Shown piece after piece: positions 1 to 7,703 of a stretch of DNA of 7,703 bases; position 1 is the stretch's first letter; each line of letters opens with the position of its first letter. Origin of the DNA: a virus (Duplodnaviria; Heunggongvirae; Uroviricota; Caudoviricetes). The position numbers were made by a program, and so were the translations under genes. Below the pieces are notes generated by a model. The model saw nothing but the letters and a program-made list of their open reading frames with translations, did not search any database and was not told the DNA's origin. Location of the stretch: IMG/VR virus record IMGVR_UViG_2778261465_000006. One strand, given 5' to 3'.

Positions 1-61
1 CGTGATGCGTTTTAATGATTTTGTAATTTTCGTATTTGATAATTGTATGATGCTTTCAGCT

Positions 62-95
62 ACGCCAGAATAATCGCGGCGTTTTTCTTTTTGAA
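62..95 (+). terminator. Candidate intrinsic terminator upstream of the lysis cassette (tR'-like or end of an upstream gene)
   Basis: Stem acgcc (62-66) / ggcgt (78-82) with an 11-nt loop, followed by tttttcttttt. Weak stem, so low confidence. Confidence 0.25.
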
Positions 96-187
96 TAGAT
101 GTTCAAGCCTTACGCTAATGTAACTTCTATACCTTTCCTCTTCGTTCCGAACCGTGTACACCATCCGTTATTTGCGGAGGTGAGGCT

Positions 188-403
188 ATGAAATCCATGG
201 ATAAGTTAACAACGGGCATTGCCTACGGCACCTCCGCAGGCAGTGCTGGCTACTGGTTTTTACAGCTGCTCGATAAAGTCACGCCCTCACAGTGGGCAGC
301 AATAGGTGTGCTGGGTAGCTTGGTATTTGGCCTGCTGACGTACCTGACAAACCTTTATTTCAAGATTAAAGAAGATAAGCGCAAGGCTGCGAGAGGTGAA
401 TAA
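188..403 (+). CDS. essD: Class II holin / pinholin (phage 21 S21 / EssD family), 71 aa, with dual-start motif
   Basis: ORF begins MKSMDK (Met1-Lys2-Ser3-Met4 dual start giving antiholin 71 and holin 68). Two hydrophobic helices ([15 protein letters not shown]; [17 protein letters not shown]) and a charged C-tail. Strong SD GGAGGTGAGG upstream. Stop overlaps the next start (TAATG). Confidence 0.9.
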
Positions 404-900
404 TGCCTCCATCATTACGAAAAGCCGTTGCTGCTGCTATTGGTGGCGGAGCAATTGCTATAGCATCAGTGTTAATCACTGGCCCAAGTGGTAACGATGG
501 TCTGGAAGGTGTCAGCTACATACCATACAAAGATATCGTTGGCGTATGGACTGTATGTCACGGGCATACAGGAAAAGACATCATTCCCGGTAAAACGTAT
601 ACCGAAGCAGAATGCAAAGCCCTCCTGAATAAAGACCTTGCCACGGTAGCCAGACAAATTAACCCGTACATCAAAGTCGATATACCGGAAACAACGCGCG
701 GCGCTCTTTACTCGTTCGTCTATAACGTGGGCGCAGGCAATTTCAGAACATCTACTCTTCTTCGCAAAATAAACCAGGGCGATATCAAGGGCGCATGTGA
801 CCAGCTACGTCGCTGGGCATACGCTGGCGGTAAGCAATGGAAAGGCCTGATGACTCGTCGTGAGATTGAGCGTGAGGTCTGTTTGTGGGGGCAACAATGA
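403..900 (+). CDS. rrrD: SAR (signal-anchor-release) endolysin, T4-lysozyme-like GH24 muramidase, 165 aa
   Basis: N-terminal Gly/Ala-rich weakly hydrophobic SAR segment ([20 protein letters not shown]). Catalytic triad spacing E35...D44...T50 as in phage 21 R. Start overlaps holin stop; stop overlaps Rz start (ATGA). Confidence 0.9.
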
Positions 901-1364
901 GCAGGGTAACCGCGATTATCTCCGCTCTGGTTATCTGCATCATCGTCTGCCTGTCATGGGCTGTTAATCATTACCGTGATAATGCAATCGCCTACAAAGA
1001 ACAGCGCGATAACAAGGCCAGTGAACTGGAGAAGGCGAACGCCACCATTACTGACATGCAGCAGCGCCAGCGTGATGCTGATGCACTCGATGATAAATAC
1101 ACGAAGGAGTTAGCTGATGCGAAAGCTGAAAATGATGCTCTTCGGCGCAAGCTTGATAATGGTGGTCGGGTGCTCGTCAAAGGAAAATGCCCTGTGCCAT
1201 CCTCAGCCGAAACCTCCAGCGCCTCCGGCATGGGCAATGATGCCACCGTCGAACTCTCTCCAGTTGCTGGACGAAACGTTCTCGGTATCCGGGACGGAAT
1301 TATCCGCGACCAAACAGCACTGAGAACGCTTCAGGAATACATCAGGACGCAATGCCTTCGATGA
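897..1364 (+). CDS. rzpD: Rz i-spanin (inner-membrane spanin subunit), about 155 aa
   Basis: Start ATG at 897 overlaps endolysin stop. N-terminal TM helix ([18 protein letters not shown]), coiled-coil-like periplasmic domain, embedded Rz1 in the +1 frame. The track ORF from 885 uses an upstream GTG; ATG 897 is preferred. Confidence 0.85.
1117..1323 (+). CDS. rzoD: Rz1 o-spanin (outer-membrane lipoprotein), embedded in Rz in the +1 frame, 68 aa
   Basis: MRKLKMML start as in lambda Rz1. Lipobox VVGC. Pro-rich mature region ([11 protein letters not shown]). SD AAGGAG 7 nt upstream of ATG 1117. Confidence 0.85.
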
Positions 1365-1538
1365 TAGCGATAATTTTACTCATCATCCTTCACATCTGGC
1401 TCTGTAGACAGGGTGGTGCTCACTTCTGGAGTGAATCCAGATTAAACATCTCATTGCTGATGCTTGATATTGAGCATTTTGCGCGCGGTAAGGGGCTGCG
1501 TTGAGATAAGAACCAGTCATTACAAATACCAGGATTTA

Positions 1539-1561
1539 GCCTCGCATTCGCGGGGCTTTTT
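1539..1561 (+). terminator. Rho-independent terminator downstream of Rz/Rz1
   Basis: Stem gcctcgc (1539-1545) / gcggggc (1550-1556), 7 bp with one G-U pair; loop attc; followed by ttttt (1557-1561) then att. Confidence 0.6.
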
Positions 1562-1573
1562 ATTGCCATTACA

Positions 1574-1603
1574 AAAGCCACTTCCTACAGAGTGGCTTTG
1601 ATA
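1574..1603 (-). terminator. Candidate terminator for the minus-strand accessory operon
   Basis: Perfect 9-bp inverted repeat aaagccact (1574-1582) / agtggcttt (1591-1599) with an 8-nt loop. On the minus strand the stem is followed by UUUUGUAAU. Lies downstream of the minus-strand ORFs. Confidence 0.4.
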
Positions 1604-1645
1604 ATGGTTTATACCCTACACGGGATAACTTAACTGATATCCCTT

Positions 1646-1810
1646 TTAAAGGATAAAGGTATTCAAGCCTGACACATCATGCGCTGTATCGTCGCCGTAT
1701 TCCCGTATTAACAGAGACCGTAGCCCGACGGGGAACTCCTTCTGCGCGAGTGTGCGGGAATAATCAAAAACGATGCACACCGGGGTTACCGGGTACACAT
1801 ATTTCATCAT
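1646..1810 (-). CDS. Possible small ORF (54 aa, MMKYVYPVTPVCIVFDYSRTLAQKEFPVGLRSLLIREYGDDTAHDVSGLNTFIL), hypothetical
   Basis: Below the 60-aa track cutoff; found by manual translation. Sits where bor lies in lambda/DLP12 but is not Bor-like. No convincing SD. In frame with ybcV beyond its stop codon. Could be a gene remnant. Confidence 0.2.
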   Translation of the reverse strand: MMKYVYPVTPVCIVFDYSRTLAQKEFPVGLRSLLIREYGDDTAHDVSGLNTFIL

Positions 1811-1855
1811 GCCAGCGAGTCCGGTTCTGGCACGGAAGAAACCGGACGTTATGAT

Positions 1856-2266
1856 TTAGTGCGGAAATATTTGTGTAGTGTTCTGAATGTTCTCAGTAAA
1901 GAGTAATGAATTATCAAAGGTATAGTAATACCTTTTGTTTTCGTGGATATTTGTAATCCATCTGAAAACCCCTGCTGTAGCAAGATTTTTCCTGTATTCG
2001 TAAAATGATAACTCTCCTGATTTGAATCCTTTTAAGGTGGCTTCTATAAGGCATTTATTTTTTGAAAATCTTACATTTACAACCTTACCCTGTCCTTTTA
2101 TTAAAACCGTATTATCGTTTTCAAGAACAAGATGAATATTCTCTGTAGCTAAATAGTAAATGTAATGTGAGACATTGTGACGTTTTAGTTCAGAATAAAA
2201 CCAGTGATAGTTTAAATTATTTCGCACTTTATCGAATATTTGTTTAAAAATGGCAACCTGAGCCAT
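1856..2266 (-). CDS. ybcV: DUF1398 family protein (YbcV/YdfO-like prophage accessory protein), 136 aa from the second Met
   Basis: Translation [16 protein letters not shown]...[25 protein letters not shown] matches my recollection of DLP12 YbcV and Qin YdfO. SD-like GGAAGG 7 nt upstream of ATG at 2266. The track ORF begins 5 codons earlier at 2281. Confidence 0.8.
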
Positions 2267-2322
2267 TGTAGTACCTTCCATGTGATATGAGGGGCGTAGT
2301 CTGCACGATTATCTAAATTGCT

Positions 2323-2556
2323 TCAATCTGGTCTGATCTGTTTTCTGAGCAATTCAGTAATGTCACTCTTTTCTTTGTTTGCTTCAGGAGAAACTCTTTT
2401 TTCTGAGCACAGTCTCCGGCGGCAGGCTTCAATGACCCAGGCTGAGAAATTCCCGGACCCTTTTTGATCAAGAGCGATGTTAATTTGTTCAATCATTTGG
2501 TTAGGAAAGCGGATGTTGCGGATTGTTGTTCTGCGGGTTCTGTTCTTCGTTGACAT
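2323..2556 (-). CDS. ylcI: Small ribbon-helix-helix (Arc/MetJ/CopG-type) DNA-binding protein, YlcI/DUF3950-like, 77 aa
   Basis: RHH signature: basic N-terminus, beta-strand IRNIRF, helix A MIEQINIALDQ, G-x-S/N turn (KGSGNFS), helix B AWVIEACRRRL, then a charged C-tail. Located immediately upstream of cos/nu1 on the opposite strand, as I recall for ylcI in DLP12. The symbol is tentative. Confidence 0.6.
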   Translation of the reverse strand: MSTKNRTRRTTIRNIRFPNQMIEQINIALDQKGSGNFSAWVIEACRRRLCSEKRVSPEANKEKSDITELLRKQIRPD

Positions 2557-2755
2557 GAGGTTGTCCCGTATTTAGTGTCGCTGATTTGTATTGTCTGAAG
2601 TTGTTTTTACGTTAAGTTGATGCAGATCAATTAATATGATACCTGCGTCATAATTGATTATTTGACGTGGTTTGATGGCGTAGATGCACGTTGTGACATG
2701 CAGATGATAATTATTATCATTTTGCAGGTCCTTTCCGGCGATCCGACAGGTTACG

Positions 2756-2767
2756 GGGCGGCGACCT
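2756..2767 (+). other. cosN 12-nt cohesive-end segment GGGCGGCGACCT (terminase nick sites flank it)
   Basis: Exact lambda cohesive-end sequence, directly visible. Confidence 0.85.
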
Positions 2768-2805
2768 CGCGGGTTTTCGCTATTTATGAAAAATTTCCGG
2801 TTTAA

Positions 2806-2916
2806 GGCGTTTCCGTTCTTCTTCGTCATAACTTAATGTTTTTATTTAAAATACCCTCTGAAAAGAAAGGAAACGACAGGTGCTGAAAGCGAGCTTTTTG
2901 GCCTCTGTCGTTTCCT
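2806..2916 (+). promoter_or_regulatory. cosB small-terminase binding repeats R3 (2808-2814), R2 (2869-2879, inverted), R1 (2905-2915), with an AT-rich IHF-like spacer
   Basis: Heptamer CGTTTCC occurs at 2808-2814 and 2909-2915, and inverted as GGAAACG at 2869-2875. R2 ggaaacgacag is the exact reverse complement of R1 ctgtcgtttcc. The arrangement matches the lambda R3-I1-R2-R1 layout. Confidence 0.7.
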
Positions 2917-2944
2917 TTCTCTGTTTTTGTCCGTGGAATGAACA

Positions 2945-3490
2945 ATGGAAGTCAACAAAAAGCAGCTGGCTGACATTTTCGGTGCGAGTATCCGTACCAT
3001 TCAGAACTGGCAGGAACAGGGAATGCCCGTTCTGCGAGGCGGTGGCAAGGGTAATGAGGTGCTTTATGACTCTGCCGCCGTCATAAAATGGTATGCCGAA
3101 AGGGATGCTGAAATTGAGAACGAAAAGCTGCGCCGGGAGGTTGAAGAACTGCGGCAGGCCAGCGAGGCAGATCTCCAGCCAGGAACTATTGAGTACGAAC
3201 GCCATCGACTTACGCGTGCGCAGGCCGACGCACAGGAACTGAAGAATGCCAGAGACTCCGCTGAAGTGGTGGAAACCGCATTCTGTACTTTCGTGTTGTC
3301 GCGGATCGCAGGTGAAATTGCCAGTATTCTCGACGGGCTCCCCCTGTCGGTGCAGCGGCGTTTTCCGGAACTGGAAAACCGACATGTTGATTTCCTGAAA
3401 CGGGATATTATCAAAGCCATGAACAAAGCAGCCGCGCTGGATGAACTGATACCGGGGTTGCTGAGTGAATATATCGAACAGTCAGGTTAA
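2945..3490 (+). CDS. nu1: Terminase small subunit (lambda gpNu1 / NohD family), 181 aa, apparently intact
   Basis: Translation MEVNKKQLADIFGASIRTIQNWQEQGMPVLRGGGKGNEVLYDSAAVIKWYAERD... matches lambda Nu1 essentially residue-for-residue by recollection. Gene A start lies inside its 3' end, as in lambda. Confidence 0.92.
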   Translation: MEVNKKQLADIFGASIRTIQNWQEQGMPVLRGGGKGNEVLYDSAAVIKWYAERDAEIENEKLRREVEELRQASEADLQPGTIEYERHRLTRAQADAQELKNARDSAEVVETAFCTFVLSRIAGEIASILDGLPLSVQRRFPELENRHVDFLKRDIIKAMNKAAALDELIPGLLSEYIEQSG

Positions 3491-3698
3491 CAGGCTGCGG
3501 CATTTTGTCCGCGCCGGGCTTCGCTCACTGTTCAGGCCGGAGCCACAGACCGCCGTTGAATGGGCGGATGCTAATTACTATCTCCCGAAAGAATCCGCAT
3601 ACCAGGAAGGGCGCTGGGAAACACTGCCCTTTCAGCGGGCCATCATGAATGCGATGGGCAGCGACTACAGCCGTACTGGATGCACTGGAGAAGCATGA
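3465..3698 (+). pseudogene. A: Terminase large subunit gpA, N-terminal fragment (first 68 codons) joined out of frame to gene U sequence
   Basis: MNISNSQVNRLRHFVRAGLRSLFRPEPQTAVEWADANYYLPKESAYQEGRWETLPFQRAIMNAMGSDY matches the lambda A N-terminus. After codon 68 (3666-3668) the sequence is gene U read out of frame, stopping at 3696-3698. The ATPase and nuclease domains are absent. Confidence 0.85.
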
Positions 3699-4041
3699 CA
3701 CCGGGGCGACGCTTTTTGATGGTCGCCCCGCTGTTTTTGATGAGGCGGATTTTCCGGCAATTGCCGTTTATCTCACCGGCGCTGAATACACGGGCGAAGA
3801 GCTGGACAGTGATACCTGGCAGGCGGAGCTGCATATTGAAGTTTTCCTGCCTGCTCAGGTGCCGGATTCAGAGCTGGATTCGTGGATGGAGTCCCGGATT
3901 TATCCGGTGATGAGCGATGTCCCGGCACTGTCAGATTTGATCACCAGTATGGTGGCCAGTGGCTATGACTACCGGCGCGACGATGATGCGGGCCTGTGGA
4001 GTTCAGCCGATCTGACTTATGTCATTACCTATGAAATGTGA
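3649..4041 (+). pseudogene. U: Tail terminator protein gpU lacking its first 8 codons (U-derived from about 3670); an in-frame ATG at 3649 is supplied by gene A sequence
   Basis: AVLDALEKHDTGATLFDGRPAVFDE...[11 protein letters not shown] matches lambda U residues 9-131. The N-terminal MRWAATT is A-gene sequence read in the U frame. Confidence 0.8.
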
Positions 4042-4048
4042 GGACGAT

Positions 4049-4531
4049 ATGCCTGTACCAAATCCAGTAATGCCGGTGAAAGGGGCCGGGACCACACTGT
4101 GGGTTTATAAGGGGAACGGTGACCCTTATGCGAACCCGCTTTCAGACGTTGACTGGTCGCGTCTGGCTAAAGTTAAAGACCTGACGCCCGGCGAACTGAC
4201 CGCTGAGTCCTATGACGACAGCTATCTCGATGATGAAGATGCGGACTGGACTGCGACCGGGCAGGGGCAGAAATCTGCCGGAGATACCAGCTTCACGCTG
4301 GCGTGGATGCCCGGAGAGCAGGGGCAGCAGGCGCTGCTGGCGTGGTTTAATGAAGGGGATACCCGTGCCTATAAAATCCGCTTCCCGAACGGCACGGTCG
4401 ATGTGTTCCGCGGCTGGGTCAGCAGTATCGGTAAGGCGGTGACGGCGAAGGAAGTGATCACCCGCACGGTGAAAGTCACCAACGTGAGACGTCCGTCGAT
4501 GGCAGAAGATCGCAGCACGGTAACAGCGGCA
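4049..4531 (+). pseudogene. V: Major tail protein gpV, truncated after about codon 161 and joined out of frame to K sequence (the ORF runs on to 4681 in the wrong frame)
   Basis: [22 protein letters not shown]...[11 protein letters not shown] matches lambda V. Downstream residues ([12 protein letters not shown]...) are gene K read out of frame. SD GAGGA upstream of ATG 4049. Confidence 0.85.
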
Positions 4532-4809
4532 ATCTGGAGGCCACAGGGCTGTATCAGGTGCCGTTGTCAGCGGCGCAGCCGGGCGATGTGCTGCTGTGCT
4601 GTTTTGGTTCATCGGTGCCGAATCATGCCGCCATTTACTGTGGTGATGGCGAGCTGCTGCACCATATTCCTGAACAACTGAGCAAACGAGAGAGGTATAC
4701 CGACAAATGGCAGCGACGCACACACTCCCTCTGGCGTCATCGGGCATGGCACGCATCTGCCTTTACGGGGATTTGCAACGATTTGGCCGCCGCATCGATC
4801 TTCGTGTGA
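4531..4809 (+). pseudogene. K: Tail tip assembly protein gpK, C-terminal fragment of about 92 codons (NlpC/P60-like region), no start codon of its own
   Basis: Frame-1 translation [70 protein letters not shown]... matches the lambda K C-terminus. Confidence 0.8.
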
Positions 4810-5378
4810 AAACGGGGGCTGAAGCTATCCGGGCGCTGGCCACACAGCTCCCGGCGTTTCGTCAGAAACTGAGCGACGGCTGGTATCAGGTACGGATTGC
4901 CGGGCGGGATGTCAGCACGTCCGGATTAACGGCGCAGTTACATGAGACTCTGCCTGATGGCGCTGTGATTCATATTGTTTCCAGAGTCGCCGGGGCCAAG
5001 TCAGGTGGTGTATTCCAGATTGTCCTGGGAGCTGCCGCCATTGCCGGATCATTCTTTACTGCCGGAGCCACCCTTGCAGCATGGGGGGCAGCCATTGGGG
5101 CCGGTGGTATGACCGGCATCCTGTTTTCTCTCGGTGCCAGTATGGTGCTCGGTGGTGTGGCGCAGATGCTGGCACCGAAAGCCAGAACTCCCCGTACACA
5201 GACAACGGATAACGGCAAACAGAACACCTATTTTTCCTCACTGGATAACATGGTTGCTCAGGGCAATGTTCTGCCTGTTCTGTACGGTGAAATGCGTGTG
5301 GGGTCGCGGGTGGTTTCTCAGGAGATCAGCACGGCAGACGAAGGGGACGGTGGTCAGGTTGTGGTGATTGGTCGCTGA
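4707..5378 (+). CDS. I: Tail assembly protein gpI, 223 aa, full length
   Basis: MAATHTLPLASSGMARICLYGDLQRFGRRIDLRVKTGAEAIRALATQLPAFRQKLSDGWYQVRIAGRD... matches lambda I over its full length. Start overlaps the end of the K fragment, as in lambda. Confidence 0.88.
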   Translation: MAATHTLPLASSGMARICLYGDLQRFGRRIDLRVKTGAEAIRALATQLPAFRQKLSDGWYQVRIAGRDVSTSGLTAQLHETLPDGAVIHIVSRVAGAKSGGVFQIVLGAAAIAGSFFTAGATLAAWGAAIGAGGMTGILFSLGASMVLGGVAQMLAPKARTPRTQTTDNGKQNTYFSSLDNMVAQGNVLPVLYGEMRVGSRVVSQEISTADEGDGGQVVVIGR

Positions 5379-5396
5379 TGCAAAATGTTTTATGTG

Positions 5397-5420
5397 AAAC
5401 CGCCTCCGGGCGGTTTTGTC
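5397..5420 (+). terminator. Terminator-like hairpin in the I-J intergenic region
   Basis: Stem aaaccgcc (5397-5404) / ggcggttt (5409-5416), loop tccg, followed by tgtcgttt. The U-tract is partly inside the stem, so function is uncertain. Confidence 0.3.
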
Positions 5421-5438
5421 GTTTATGGAGCATGACGA

Positions 5439-5666
5439 ATGGGTAAAGGCAGCAGTAAGGGGCATACCCCGCGCGAAGCGAAGGATAACCTGAAATCCAC
5501 GCAGCTGCTGAGTGTGATCGATGCCATCAGCGAAGGGCCGATTGAAGGTCCGGTGGATGGATTAAAAAGCGTGCTGCTGAACAGTACACCGGTGCTGGAC
5601 AGTGATTCCCGCCGTCACATGCCGGGACCATCACCGTGTATGAAGATTCCCGACCCGGTACGCTGA
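5439..5666 (+). pseudogene. J: Tail tip/host-specificity protein gpJ, N-terminal fragment (about 54 codons) joined out of frame to stf sequence
   Basis: MGKGSSKGHTPREAKDNLKSTQLLSVIDAISEGPIEGPVDGLKSVLLNSTPVLD matches the lambda J N-terminus. The following SDSRRHMPGPSPCMKIPDPVR is stf sequence read out of frame. More than 1000 codons of J are missing. Confidence 0.85.
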
Positions 5667-7119
5667 ATGATTTTCTCGGTGCCATGACGGAGGATGATGC
5701 CCGTCCTGAGGCACTGCGCCGTTTTGAACTGATGGTGGAAGAGGTGGCGCGTAACGCGTCCGCGGTGGCACAGAACACGGCAGCCGCGAAGAAGTCAGCC
5801 AGCGATGCCGGCACATCAGCACGTGAGGCGGCAACCCATGCGACTGATGCTGCAGGCTCAGCACGCGCAGCCAGCACGTCAGCCGGACAGGCCGCGTCGT
5901 CGGCTCAGTCAGCATCTTCCAGCGCAGGAACGGCATCAACAAAGGCCAGTGAAGCATCGAAAAGTGCTGCTGCTGCAGAGTCCTCAAAAAGCGCGGCAGC
6001 TACCAGTGCCGCTGCGGCGAAAACGTCAGAAACGAATGCGGCAGCGTCACAACAATCAGCAGCCACTTCTGCATCCGCCGCGACCACGAAGGCGTCAGAA
6101 GCAGCCACCTCAGCCCGGGATGCGGCGGCCTCAAAAGAGGCAGCGAAATCATCAGAAACGAACGCATCATCAAGCGCCAGTAGTGCCGCTTCCTCGGCAA
6201 CGGCGGCAGGCAATTCCGCGAAGGCGGCAAAGACGTCTGAGACAAACGCCAGGTCTTCTGAAACGGCAGCGGGACAGAGCGCCTCGGCTGCGGCAGGCTC
6301 AAAAACAGCGGCTGCGTCGTCTGCCAGTGCCGCGTCAACAAGTGCCGGGCAGGCCTCAGCCAGTGCCACCGCCGCCGGAAAATCGGCAGAAAGTGCCGCA
6401 TCGTCTGCTTCAACAGCCACAACGAAGGCTGGCGAAGCCACTGAACTGGTTATTGGAACCAAACTGTCCGCAAGTCTGAACGGTAATGCATTAACAGCAA
6501 CAAAGCTGCAAACGCCAAGACGGGTTTCTGGTGTTGAGTTTGATGGTTCCAAAGATATTACTTTATGCGTGGCTGGACGATTAAGGGCAAGCCCGCCAGT
6601 GGTCGTGCCGTATTGTCTCAGGAACAGGACGGCATAAAATCGCATACCCACAGCGCCAGCGCATCCAGTACTGATTTGGGGACGAAAACCACATCGTCGT
6701 TTGATTACGGCACTAAATCCACGAATAACACTGGTGCGCATACCCATAGTTTAAGTGGCAGCACGAATGCAGCTGGTAATCACAGCCATAGAGATGGCCG
6801 TCGATTTAACCCCAGTGTTTTTAAAGATACTTATCAATATGGTTATACAAGCTCAGGTCAAAATACCTGGGGTGTACAAGGCTCAGTAGGTATGTCTACG
6901 GGGGCGTTAGCTAATACCAGTACAGATGGTAACCATAGCCACTCACTGTCCGGCACAGCAGCATCTGCAGGTGCACACGCACATACTGTCGGTATTGGTG
7001 CACACACGCACTCCGTTGCGATTGGTTCACATGGACACACCATCACCGTTAACGCTGCTGGTAACGCGGAAAACACCGTCAAAAACATCGCATTTAACTA
7101 TATTGTGAGGCTTGCATAA
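5606..7119 (+). pseudogene. stf: Side tail fibre gene stf: lacks its N-terminus and start, has a frame break at about 6563-6565, and retains the His-rich C-terminal tip domain
   Basis: Frame-2 segment (5606-6637) FPPSHAGTITVYEDSRPGTLNDFLGAMTEDDARPE... plus Ala/Ser-rich shaft matches the lambda Stf N-terminal half from about residue 55. Frame-1 segment (6565-7119) [34 protein letters not shown]...[18 protein letters not shown] matches the Stf C-terminus. The two segments are in different frames. Confidence 0.8.
5760..6420 (+). repeat. Low-complexity Ala/Ser/Thr-rich coding repeats of the fibre shaft (recurring AAKTSETNA-type motif)
   Basis: Motif K-[TS]-SETNA appears at least three times in the translation (near 6016, 6141, 6230) within a GC-rich, compositionally biased stretch. 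This explains the many overlapping spurious ORFs on both strands. Confidence 0.5.
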
Positions 7120-7703
7120 TGGCATTCAGAATGAGTGAACAACCACGGACCATAAAAATTTATAATCTGCTGGCCGGAACTAATGAATTTATTGGTGAAG
7201 GTGACGCATATATTCCGCCTCATACAGGTCTGCCAGCAAACAGTACCGATATTGCACCGCCAGATATTCCGGCTGGCTTTGTGGCTGTTTTCAACAGTGA
7301 TGAGTCATCGTGGCATCTCGTTGAAGATCATCGGGGAAAAACCGTCTATGACGTGGCTTCCGGCGACGCGTTATTTATTTCTGAACTTGGCTCGTTACCG
7401 GAAAATGTCACCTGGTTATCGCCGGAAGGGGAATATCAGAAGTGGAACGGCACAGCCTGGGTGAAGGATACGGAAGCAGAAAAACTGTTCCGGATCCGGG
7501 AGGCGGAAGAAACAAAAAACAGCCTGATGCAGGTAGCCAGTGAGCATATAGCGCCACTTCAGGATGCTGTAGATCTGGAGATCGCAACGGAGGAAGAAAC
7601 CTCATTGCTGGAAGCCTGGAAAAAATATCGGGTGTTGCTGAACCGTGTTAATACAACAACTGCACCGGATATTGAATGGCCAACAGTACCCATTATCGAA
7701 TAG
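7119..7703 (+). CDS. tfa: Tail fibre assembly chaperone Tfa, 194 aa, full length
   Basis: [62 protein letters not shown]... matches lambda Tfa throughout. ATG overlaps the stf stop (TAATG). SD-like GTGAGG upstream. Stop TAG at 7701-7703. Confidence 0.9.

Follow-up and report, generated by a model that had tools for sequence, protein, structure and literature searches.

The stretch of DNA analyzed here (7,703 nucleotides, hereafter called the window) matches NCBI draft contig NNVC01000046.1 of GCA_002485495.1 with 100% identity. The gene order on this contig and its sister contigs begins at the left end with genes for a Q antiterminator, a lipocalin, a YbgA-like protein and an AraC-type protein. 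It then continues through holin, lysozyme and Rz genes and the DUF1398 and DUF3950 genes to cos, nu1, A', U', V', K', I, J', stf' and tfa, where a prime marks an incomplete gene. To the right of tfa lie a gene coding for a MASE4-GGDEF diguanylate cyclase (dgcX) and then ybhB, bioA, bioBFCD and uvrB. The contigs that carry this arrangement break in the nin/Q region, and the gene order is known from there rightward. The lambda att core, GCTTTTTTATACTAA, is located 7.0 kb to the right of cos, with the dgcX-like gene on one side and ybhB-bioA on the other. This position, between the cyclase gene and ybhB, identifies the element as a lambdoid prophage inserted at att-lambda and oriented as in a lambda lysogen, and the cyclase gene is prophage cargo. 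The att-lambda flank of the contig (tfa to ybhB) matches all 5,426 of 5,426 complete E. coli genomes, with identity up to 99.9%. A lambdoid gene order, a phage attachment site and host flanks are all present at the locus.

The left part of the window carries a lysis cassette (188..1364, plus strand) composed of ORFs for a holin (188-403), a lysozyme (403-900) and an Rz-type spanin (885/897-1364). The identical genes in source contig L004 fall into the Pfam families Phage_holin_2_1, Phage_lysozyme and Phage_lysis, and those of the intact counterpart prophage described below are annotated as essD, rrrD and lysis protein. Two small conserved genes assigned by Pfam occupy the minus strand just left of cos, one of the DUF1398 type (YbcV/YdfO family; 1856-2281) and one of the DUF3950 type (YlcI/YnfO family; 2323-2556). 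Genes of both families hold the equivalent position beside cos in the K-12 prophages DLP12 and Qin.

The cohesive end of cosN, GGGCGGCGACCT, is located at positions 2756-2767 of the plus strand, and it matches lambda, Chlobot, DE3, DLP12 and Qin exactly, including the flanking bases. This segment is found once in the window and once in 18 kb of source contig L004. The nicks are expected at 2755/2756 on the top strand and at 2767/2768 on the bottom strand. The gap-free alignments of DNA spanning 2394-3674 reach 98.0% identity with lambda and 98.7-99.3% with the isolated phage Chlobot, and identities of this size (98.0% for lambda, about 99% for Chlobot) establish homology and exclude chance. 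From cosN through the stop codon of nu1 the window is identical to Chlobot, base for base, and it differs from lambda only at one position in I2 and at two synonymous bases in nu1. The I2 difference is located in the spacer between cosN and cosB (2773..2804, plus strand; lambda bp 18-50, with the extent of I2 taken from PMC4856287), where an A at 2793 replaces the T of lambda. The same A is present in Chlobot, which is a functional phage.

With cosB defined as in PMC9026076, the element occupies 2805..2920 and includes R3 (2805-2820, plus strand; lambda bp 50-65), the I1/IHF region (2821-2863), R2 (2864-2879, minus strand) and R1 (2905-2920, plus strand). The whole segment is identical to both lambda and Chlobot, with no indels, and is followed by the nu1 start at 2945. 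The heptamer CGTTTCC occurs three times in the window, at 2808 (plus), 2869 (minus) and 2909 (plus), and R2 and R1 are exact inverted copies of each other over 16 bp. Thus, the locus carries a lambda-type cosN and a lambda-type cosB, with R2 inverted, lambda spacing and a position beside the TerS gene. The original prediction for this DNA had described an exact cohesive end flanked by lambda-like sequence, three heptamers arranged as R3, inverted R2 and R1, and an R2 that is the exact reverse complement of R1, and each of these features is borne out by the alignments.

The same prediction had called the cos site intact, and this holds only in part. Although cosN, I2 and cosB are identical to those of Chlobot, cosQ, which signals packaging termination, is mutated. 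The alignments place at 2726..2732 (plus strand) the variant AGGTCCT instead of the consensus GGGTCCT, owing to a G-to-A change at 2726, and the GGGTCCT expected roughly 30 bp to the left of the nick is accordingly absent. A comparison with functional cos sites, which had been proposed as a check, yields the same mixed outcome: there is no change in cosN or the R sites relative to Chlobot, but cosQ carries the G-to-A substitution.

We take cosQ to be exactly this 7-bp element, which reportedly corresponds to lambda 48473-48479 (Wieczorek & Feiss 2001), and the conservation pattern measured in our alignments agrees with that position. GGGTCCT begins a conserved block in lambda, DE3, Chlobot, DLP12, Qin, phi80 and N15. 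The bases immediately to its left differ among phages, and its first G is constant. A G is present at this first base in 122 of 123 cos sites from IMG/VR and phages, with the exception resembling a 1-bp deletion, and in all 18 of the 18 cos matches found in species-representative genomes. Overall, G is found in all but one (the indel variant) of about 145 comparison sites. The A form was seen in none of the IMG/VR viral contigs or JGI metagenome contigs and is present in 10 of 10 contigs bearing this particular stump, and so appears to be unique to this lineage. Natural cosQ variation "is not apparent" according to Feiss and colleagues (PMC4669245). A natural cosQ variant located beside an otherwise wild-type cos could serve for testing how strictly cosQ is recognized. 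Initiation of packaging requires cosN and cosB, whereas termination requires cosQ and cosN (PMC4669245). Thus, the initiation half of this cos is intact and the termination half is altered.

Immediately downstream of cosB, nu1 (2945..3490, plus strand) codes for a full-length small terminase subunit (TerS) of 181 amino acids (Pfam Phage_Nu1, E = 2.5e-100). The protein is 100% identical to lambda Nu1, and the two synonymous differences in the gene are both shared with Chlobot. The large terminase gene is reduced to a stump, A' (3465..3698, plus strand), which forms an ORF of 77 codons whose product consists of 67 residues identical to gpA followed by 10 unrelated residues. Nucleotide homology to lambda A extends to codon 69/70, identity at the protein level covers the 67 residues, and the stop is reached at 3698. 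The 77-residue A' product has no exact-protein match on record.

The remainder of the window is best described by what has been removed from it, as mapped by blastn against the whole lambda genome. The largest deletion, of 7.65 kb, runs from codon 70 of A to codon 8 of U and eliminates W, B, C, Nu3, D, E, FI, FII and Z. At its junction, 3668-3674, A and U share an imperfect microhomology of 7 bp. Another deletion of 5.16 kb joins codon 161 of V to nucleotide 466 of K at 4531-4532, with a 2-bp overlap, and removes G, T, H, M and L. The last, of 4.18 kb, joins nucleotide 167 of J to nucleotide 199 of stf at 5605/5606, with the loss of most of J and of lom. The resulting A'/U', V'/K' and J'/stf' fusions are all out of frame.

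Tail debris therefore fills 3668..5605 on the plus strand, and includes U from codon 8 (to 4041), V codons 1-161 (4049-4532), the 3' part of K (4531-4809), the I ORF (4707-5378) and the first 167 nucleotides of J (5439-5605), with matches to the Pfam families Phage_tail_U, Phage_TTP_12 and Lambda_tail_I. The deletion map and Pfam further identify an internally deleted side tail fiber gene, stf' (5606-7119, plus strand), and the tail fiber assembly gene tfa (7119-7703, plus strand). In the window, stf' lacks 1.26 kb that is kept by sister contigs (at window 6443-6446). The A'/U' junction is found in none of the 5,426 complete E. coli genomes, and this exact deletion derivative was found only in draft and Logan contigs. 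Virion-essential genes are lost and U, V and K are truncated, in keeping with a cryptic prophage. Several earlier statements hold up well against this map, namely that nu1 is full length, that A is truncated early, that head genes are absent downstream (the interval A(3')-W-B-C-Nu3-D-E-FI-FII-Z-U(5') is deleted) and that the element cannot package itself, having neither the large terminase nor any of the head genes.

An apparently intact counterpart of this prophage is present in E. coli FDAARGOS_497, which is 99.86% identical over window positions 1-3674. Only four real SNPs separate the two, and they include the G-to-A change in cosQ, where the intact prophage carries G at the first base. 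A derived G-to-A change at an otherwise invariant cosQ base would fit relaxed selection once the phage had died. By our arithmetic, four substitutions in about 3.7 kb have a chance of roughly 10% of striking any cos sub-site. That one of the four landed in cosQ is unremarkable under a neutral process. Judging from this divergence, the stump is very young, and so the perfect nu1 and cosB indicate only a lack of time for decay. At about 0.1% divergence from an intact prophage, conservation cannot separate a sequence that is maintained from one that is too young to have decayed.

Relatives at the same chromosomal site bear on whether cos is being kept. The arrangement tfa-dgcX-attR-ybhB is common to 585 of the 5,426 complete E. 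coli genomes. At att-lambda in strain XJ5.2, the late genes from the major capsid gene to tfa are present along with dgcX in the portion of the locus examined. In strain OW1E2 the same site is reduced to a fragment of the integrase gene, IS elements, stf', tfa and dgcX, with both cos and nu1 lost. Compared with the window, two sister contigs (L005/L012) have lost another 2.4 kb. The constant element at att-lambda is thus the dgcX cyclase gene and not cos. Because these relatives keep dgcX without cos-nu1, retention of cos looks incidental, a reading that the original prediction had allowed as an equal option and that the evidence now favors. If so, cos and nu1 would have survived through deletions that have missed them so far and not through maintenance. 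More broadly, the att-lambda/dgcX family forms a decay series that extends from intact prophage to near-complete loss, and should be useful for asking which parts hosts keep.

Similar leftovers are abundant. Among the 5,426 complete E. coli genomes, 4,590 carry a lambda-type cos-nu1 segment, which occupies 8,937 places in all, and an internal segment of A was found at only 4,821 places in this collection. The first ~200 nucleotides of A occur at 10,231 places. Stumps of the cos-nu1 type are commonplace, largely through widespread DLP12-type remnants, and lambda-type examples rank with the most frequent prophage remains in E. coli.

These observations make it very probable that the region is what recent decay has left of a lambda-family prophage at att-lambda, a cos-nu1-A' stump with the same anatomy as the cos-nohD-aaaD' segment of DLP12. 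Its present form would be the product of the three internal deletions A(3')-U(5'), V(3')-K(5') and J-stf(5'). Since cosN, I2 and the entire R3-I1-R2-R1 array are identical to those of a functional phage, recognition by the terminase of a helper with lambda specificity is plausible. A superinfecting or co-resident phage of this specificity can probably bind and nick the stump cos in situ. Nu1 would occupy R3, R2 and R1, IHF would bend I1, and gpA would nick cosN of the chromosomal stump. The resulting double-strand break, together with a homology patch of 1.3-3.7 kb, would favor recombination between phage and stump as it does for DLP12, and the exchange may include marker rescue or replacement of nu1, cos or lysis genes. 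Packaging that begins at the stump cos would run rightward through tfa-dgcX-attR-ybhB-bio-uvrB.

The last step invites a more ambitious interpretation, wherein the stump serves as an in-situ packaging origin from which a helper terminase cuts the chromosomal cos and packages rightward, which would result in lateral-transduction-like or docL-like transfer of host DNA. We regard this as very unlikely, even though cosN, I2 and cosB are identical to those of functional Chlobot, the polarity is that of a lambda prophage, and the DNA in the path of the terminase comprises tfa, dgcX, ybhB, bio, uvrB, moa and beyond. Sternberg and Weisberg, in 1975, reportedly observed packaging of bio-side host DNA from the cos of an unexcised lambda prophage. 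Classical docL particles are reported to be non-infectious unless they are trimmed with DNase and tailed in vitro. A cos terminase requires a second cos to make the terminal cut, and protruding uncut DNA blocks the joining of tails (PMC6687093). No cosN-like site (three or fewer mismatches in 19 bases) was found in the 50 kb downstream of att-lambda/attR in one syntenic genome. Without a second cos within a headful, packaging would not be terminated and, from the mechanism known for lambda, dead-end particles lacking tails would be expected. In addition, phages of the cos type reportedly do not engage in lateral transduction (PMC12829572), and the presence of dgcX without cos in OW1E2 indicates that the persistence of dgcX is independent of cos. 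The lack of a second cos and the two published accounts (PMC6687093, PMC12829572) lead us to reject productive lateral transduction, and productive mobilization of host DNA by a helper is unlikely. The suggestion that the stump productively mobilizes adjacent host DNA through cos is therefore not supported, in view of the absence of a second site in the 50 kb downstream in the syntenic genome, the mutated cosQ and the same literature. As to the companion suggestion, that the stump interferes with packaging of the helper, a single additional cos on the chromosome would be expected to have a negligible effect when set against many copies of the phage.

Two other interpretations assign the retained parts a function of their own. 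The stump could be a cos-type satellite (a PICI/EcCI-like element or a helper-dependent defective phage) that keeps cos for packaging by, and interference with, a helper. It does keep cos and a TerS gene along with Q and the lysis genes, and it lacks TerL and capsid genes. However, its cosB and Nu1 are lambda's own, and the divergent cosB with an adjacent rpp-like gene that defines E. coli cos islands (PMC9026076, PMC6739421) is absent. The gene content consists of frameshifted tail-gene fusions and not of a compact, intact functional module, sister strains continue to lose pieces, and a mutation affects cosQ, on which termination of any packaged unit depends. Our PADLOC scan matched no defense model beyond HTH-level similarity of Nu1, the sole match being that between the N-terminal HTH of Nu1 and 'mad1', which we read as similarity at the level of the fold and do not accept as evidence for defense. 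On the grounds of cosB, TerS identity and gene content we reject the satellite/PICI assignment, to which we give almost no credence. The idea that cis-elements are retained in the manner of satellites is likewise not upheld, given that cosB and Nu1 are those of the helper itself, an rpp-like gene is missing and the deletions are frameshifting fusion scars.

Alternatively, the terminase parts might have been domesticated, such that expressed Nu1 and the 67-residue gpA N-terminus disturb an incoming terminase by acting as a decoy or poison. TerL binds TerS through its N-terminal region (PMC9026076), A' retains this end of the protein, and the nu1 ORF is intact. Moreover, the 5' segment of A outnumbers the internal segment more than twofold in the counts given above, and DLP12 carries the analogous aaaD'. 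This excess of A stumps is, however, attributable to vertical inheritance of DLP12-type remnants. Qin lacks A and has nohA fused to stf, and OW1E2 lacks both genes. The DLP12 nu1 gene functions in lambda (PMC3945230), and a Nu1 that is identical to the protein of the phage is more likely to complement than to interfere when supplied in extra copies. These considerations make a decoy function highly doubtful. Taken together, the proposals that the stump cos is cut during infection with occasional transfer of dgcX-bio-uvrB DNA, or that Nu1 and the gpA peptide titrate or poison terminase, seem to us very improbable. If either were true, the packaging module of a dead prophage would be a transfer origin or an anti-phage decoy.

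The decayed-prophage interpretation has its closest parallel in DLP12 of E. coli K-12, whose gene order is essD-rrrD-rzpD-borD-ybcV-ybcW-ylcI-cos-nohD-aaaD'-tfaD. Like the window, DLP12 presents holin, lysozyme and Rz genes, DUF1398 and DUF3950 genes, cos, a full-length Nu1 homolog and an N-terminal A stump fused into tail fiber genes. Its cos region aligns base for base with that of the window, and cosN, R2 and R1 are identical. The two differ in where cos has been damaged, as DLP12 has an intact GGGTCCT cosQ but a C-to-T change inside the R3 heptamer, whereas R3 is intact in the window. They also differ in their deletion end-points and in their chromosomal sites, that of DLP12 presumably being argU and that of the window prophage being att-lambda. 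De Paepe et al. have shown that high-frequency recombination takes place between lambda and the cos patch of DLP12, that 10 of 19 sequenced junctions lie at or next to cos, and that lambda recombinants carrying the DLP12 nu1 gene are viable (PMC3945230). Poteete et al. likewise found this patch to be a recombination target (PMC545071).

Qin (ydfO-ynfO-cos-nohA-stfQ-tfaQ) also resembles the window in its DUF1398 and DUF3950 genes, its lambda-type cos, its Nu1 homolog and the base-for-base alignment of its cos region. Decay in Qin has taken a different course, in that the deletion extends into the nu1 homolog at its 3' end, the A stump is absent and nohA is fused to stf. Furthermore, the R3 heptamer of Qin has a G-to-A change and there are two more changes between R2 and R1, whereas cosQ is intact. 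In lambda, Chlobot, DE3 and lambda PaPa-type phages, the first base of cosQ is G and functional A, portal and capsid genes follow downstream, unlike in the window. The E. coli cos PICIs (EcCICFT073 type, cos-rpp) share with the window the lack of their own large terminase and capsid genes and the presence of a lambda-like cosQ and cosN (PMC9026076, PMC6739421). In contrast, these islands pair a cosB of another type with an Rpp protein that reprograms the helper TerS, and they carry integration, regulation and replication modules of their own. The window has the cosB and TerS of the phage itself, and the rest of it is what deletions have left behind.

The Feiss laboratory works with E. coli C for the very reason that the defective prophages of that strain carry no lambda cosN (PMC4669245). 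The class of element to which this stump belongs, its cos, and its interplay with infecting phages are already described, and cos-nu1 stumps are already known to recombine with infecting lambdoid phages and to serve them as a store of genes.

The deletion junctions in the truncated lambda-type genes carry short or imperfect microhomology, which suggests that the deletions arose by illegitimate recombination rather than by IS-mediated loss. The A/U scar (window 3668-3674) has 7 bp of microhomology with one mismatch, the V/K scar (4531-4532) has 2 bp, and the scar inside stf (6443-6446) has 4 bp. No IS elements are present in the window. The stf remnant encodes a long, repetitive segment rich in Ala, Ser and Thr (5636-6637), over which the other frames and the complementary strand are also open for long stretches. 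These additional long ORFs are probably compositional artefacts.

Over positions 1-3674 and outside cos, the window carries substitutions relative to the intact counterpart prophage of strain FDAARGOS_497 at positions 727, 1007 and 2270. The first is a non-synonymous change in the lysozyme gene (V109 in the window versus M in FDAARGOS_497), the second is synonymous and lies in Rz, and the third is located directly upstream of the likely start of the DUF1398 gene.

The contig that carries the prophage stump and its flanks (L004) also includes a gene for a 443-amino-acid MASE4-GGDEF diguanylate cyclase (L004 11358-12689) directly to the right of the window. Because this gene has tfa on one side and the lambda att core (L004 13330-13344) on the other, it is prophage cargo at att-lambda. 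The arrangement tfa-cyclase-attR-ybhB occurs in 585 of 5,426 complete E. coli genomes, and strain OW1E2 retains the cyclase gene even though its prophage has been almost wholly lost. The gene is probably the 'dgcX' known from O104:H4-type strains. To the left of the window, genes for a lipocalin, a YbgA/DUF1722-type protein and an AraC-type regulator (L004 822-3581; 3542-6301 in L140, another locus with the same left-hand genes) have a non-phage look and are flanked by the Q antiterminator and holin genes. In other lambdoid phages, the Q-holin interval is occupied by nmpC or stx.

The winged-HTH region formed by Nu1 residues 1-55 (window 2945-3110) matches the PADLOC model 'mad1' (mads_1) with an E value of 1e-11. 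This match suggests that Nu1 and a component of the mads_1 candidate defence system have a TerS-type DNA-binding domain in common.

Exact lambda cos sequences were also encountered in assemblies of unrelated organisms (contigs L141-L157, one of which is 48.5 kb), including Oceanobacillus, Shewanella, Raphidiopsis, Archangium, an Alicyclobacillus 'plasmid' and several MAGs. Almost certainly, these assemblies are contaminated by DNA of lambda or phi80 that served as a control or vector. The sole cosQ variant besides that of the window, in a set of about 145 sites, is found around position 6519 of an IMG/VR contig (L111), where CGGTCCT replaces the expected GGGTCCT, apparently because one G has been lost. 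The K-12 cryptic prophages DLP12 and Qin present the mirror image of the state of the window, in that cosQ and cosN are intact whereas the R3 heptamer of cosB, CGTTTCC, carries a substitution in each, reading TGTTTCC in DLP12 (L134 6550-6850) and CATTTCC in Qin (L135 4353-4660).
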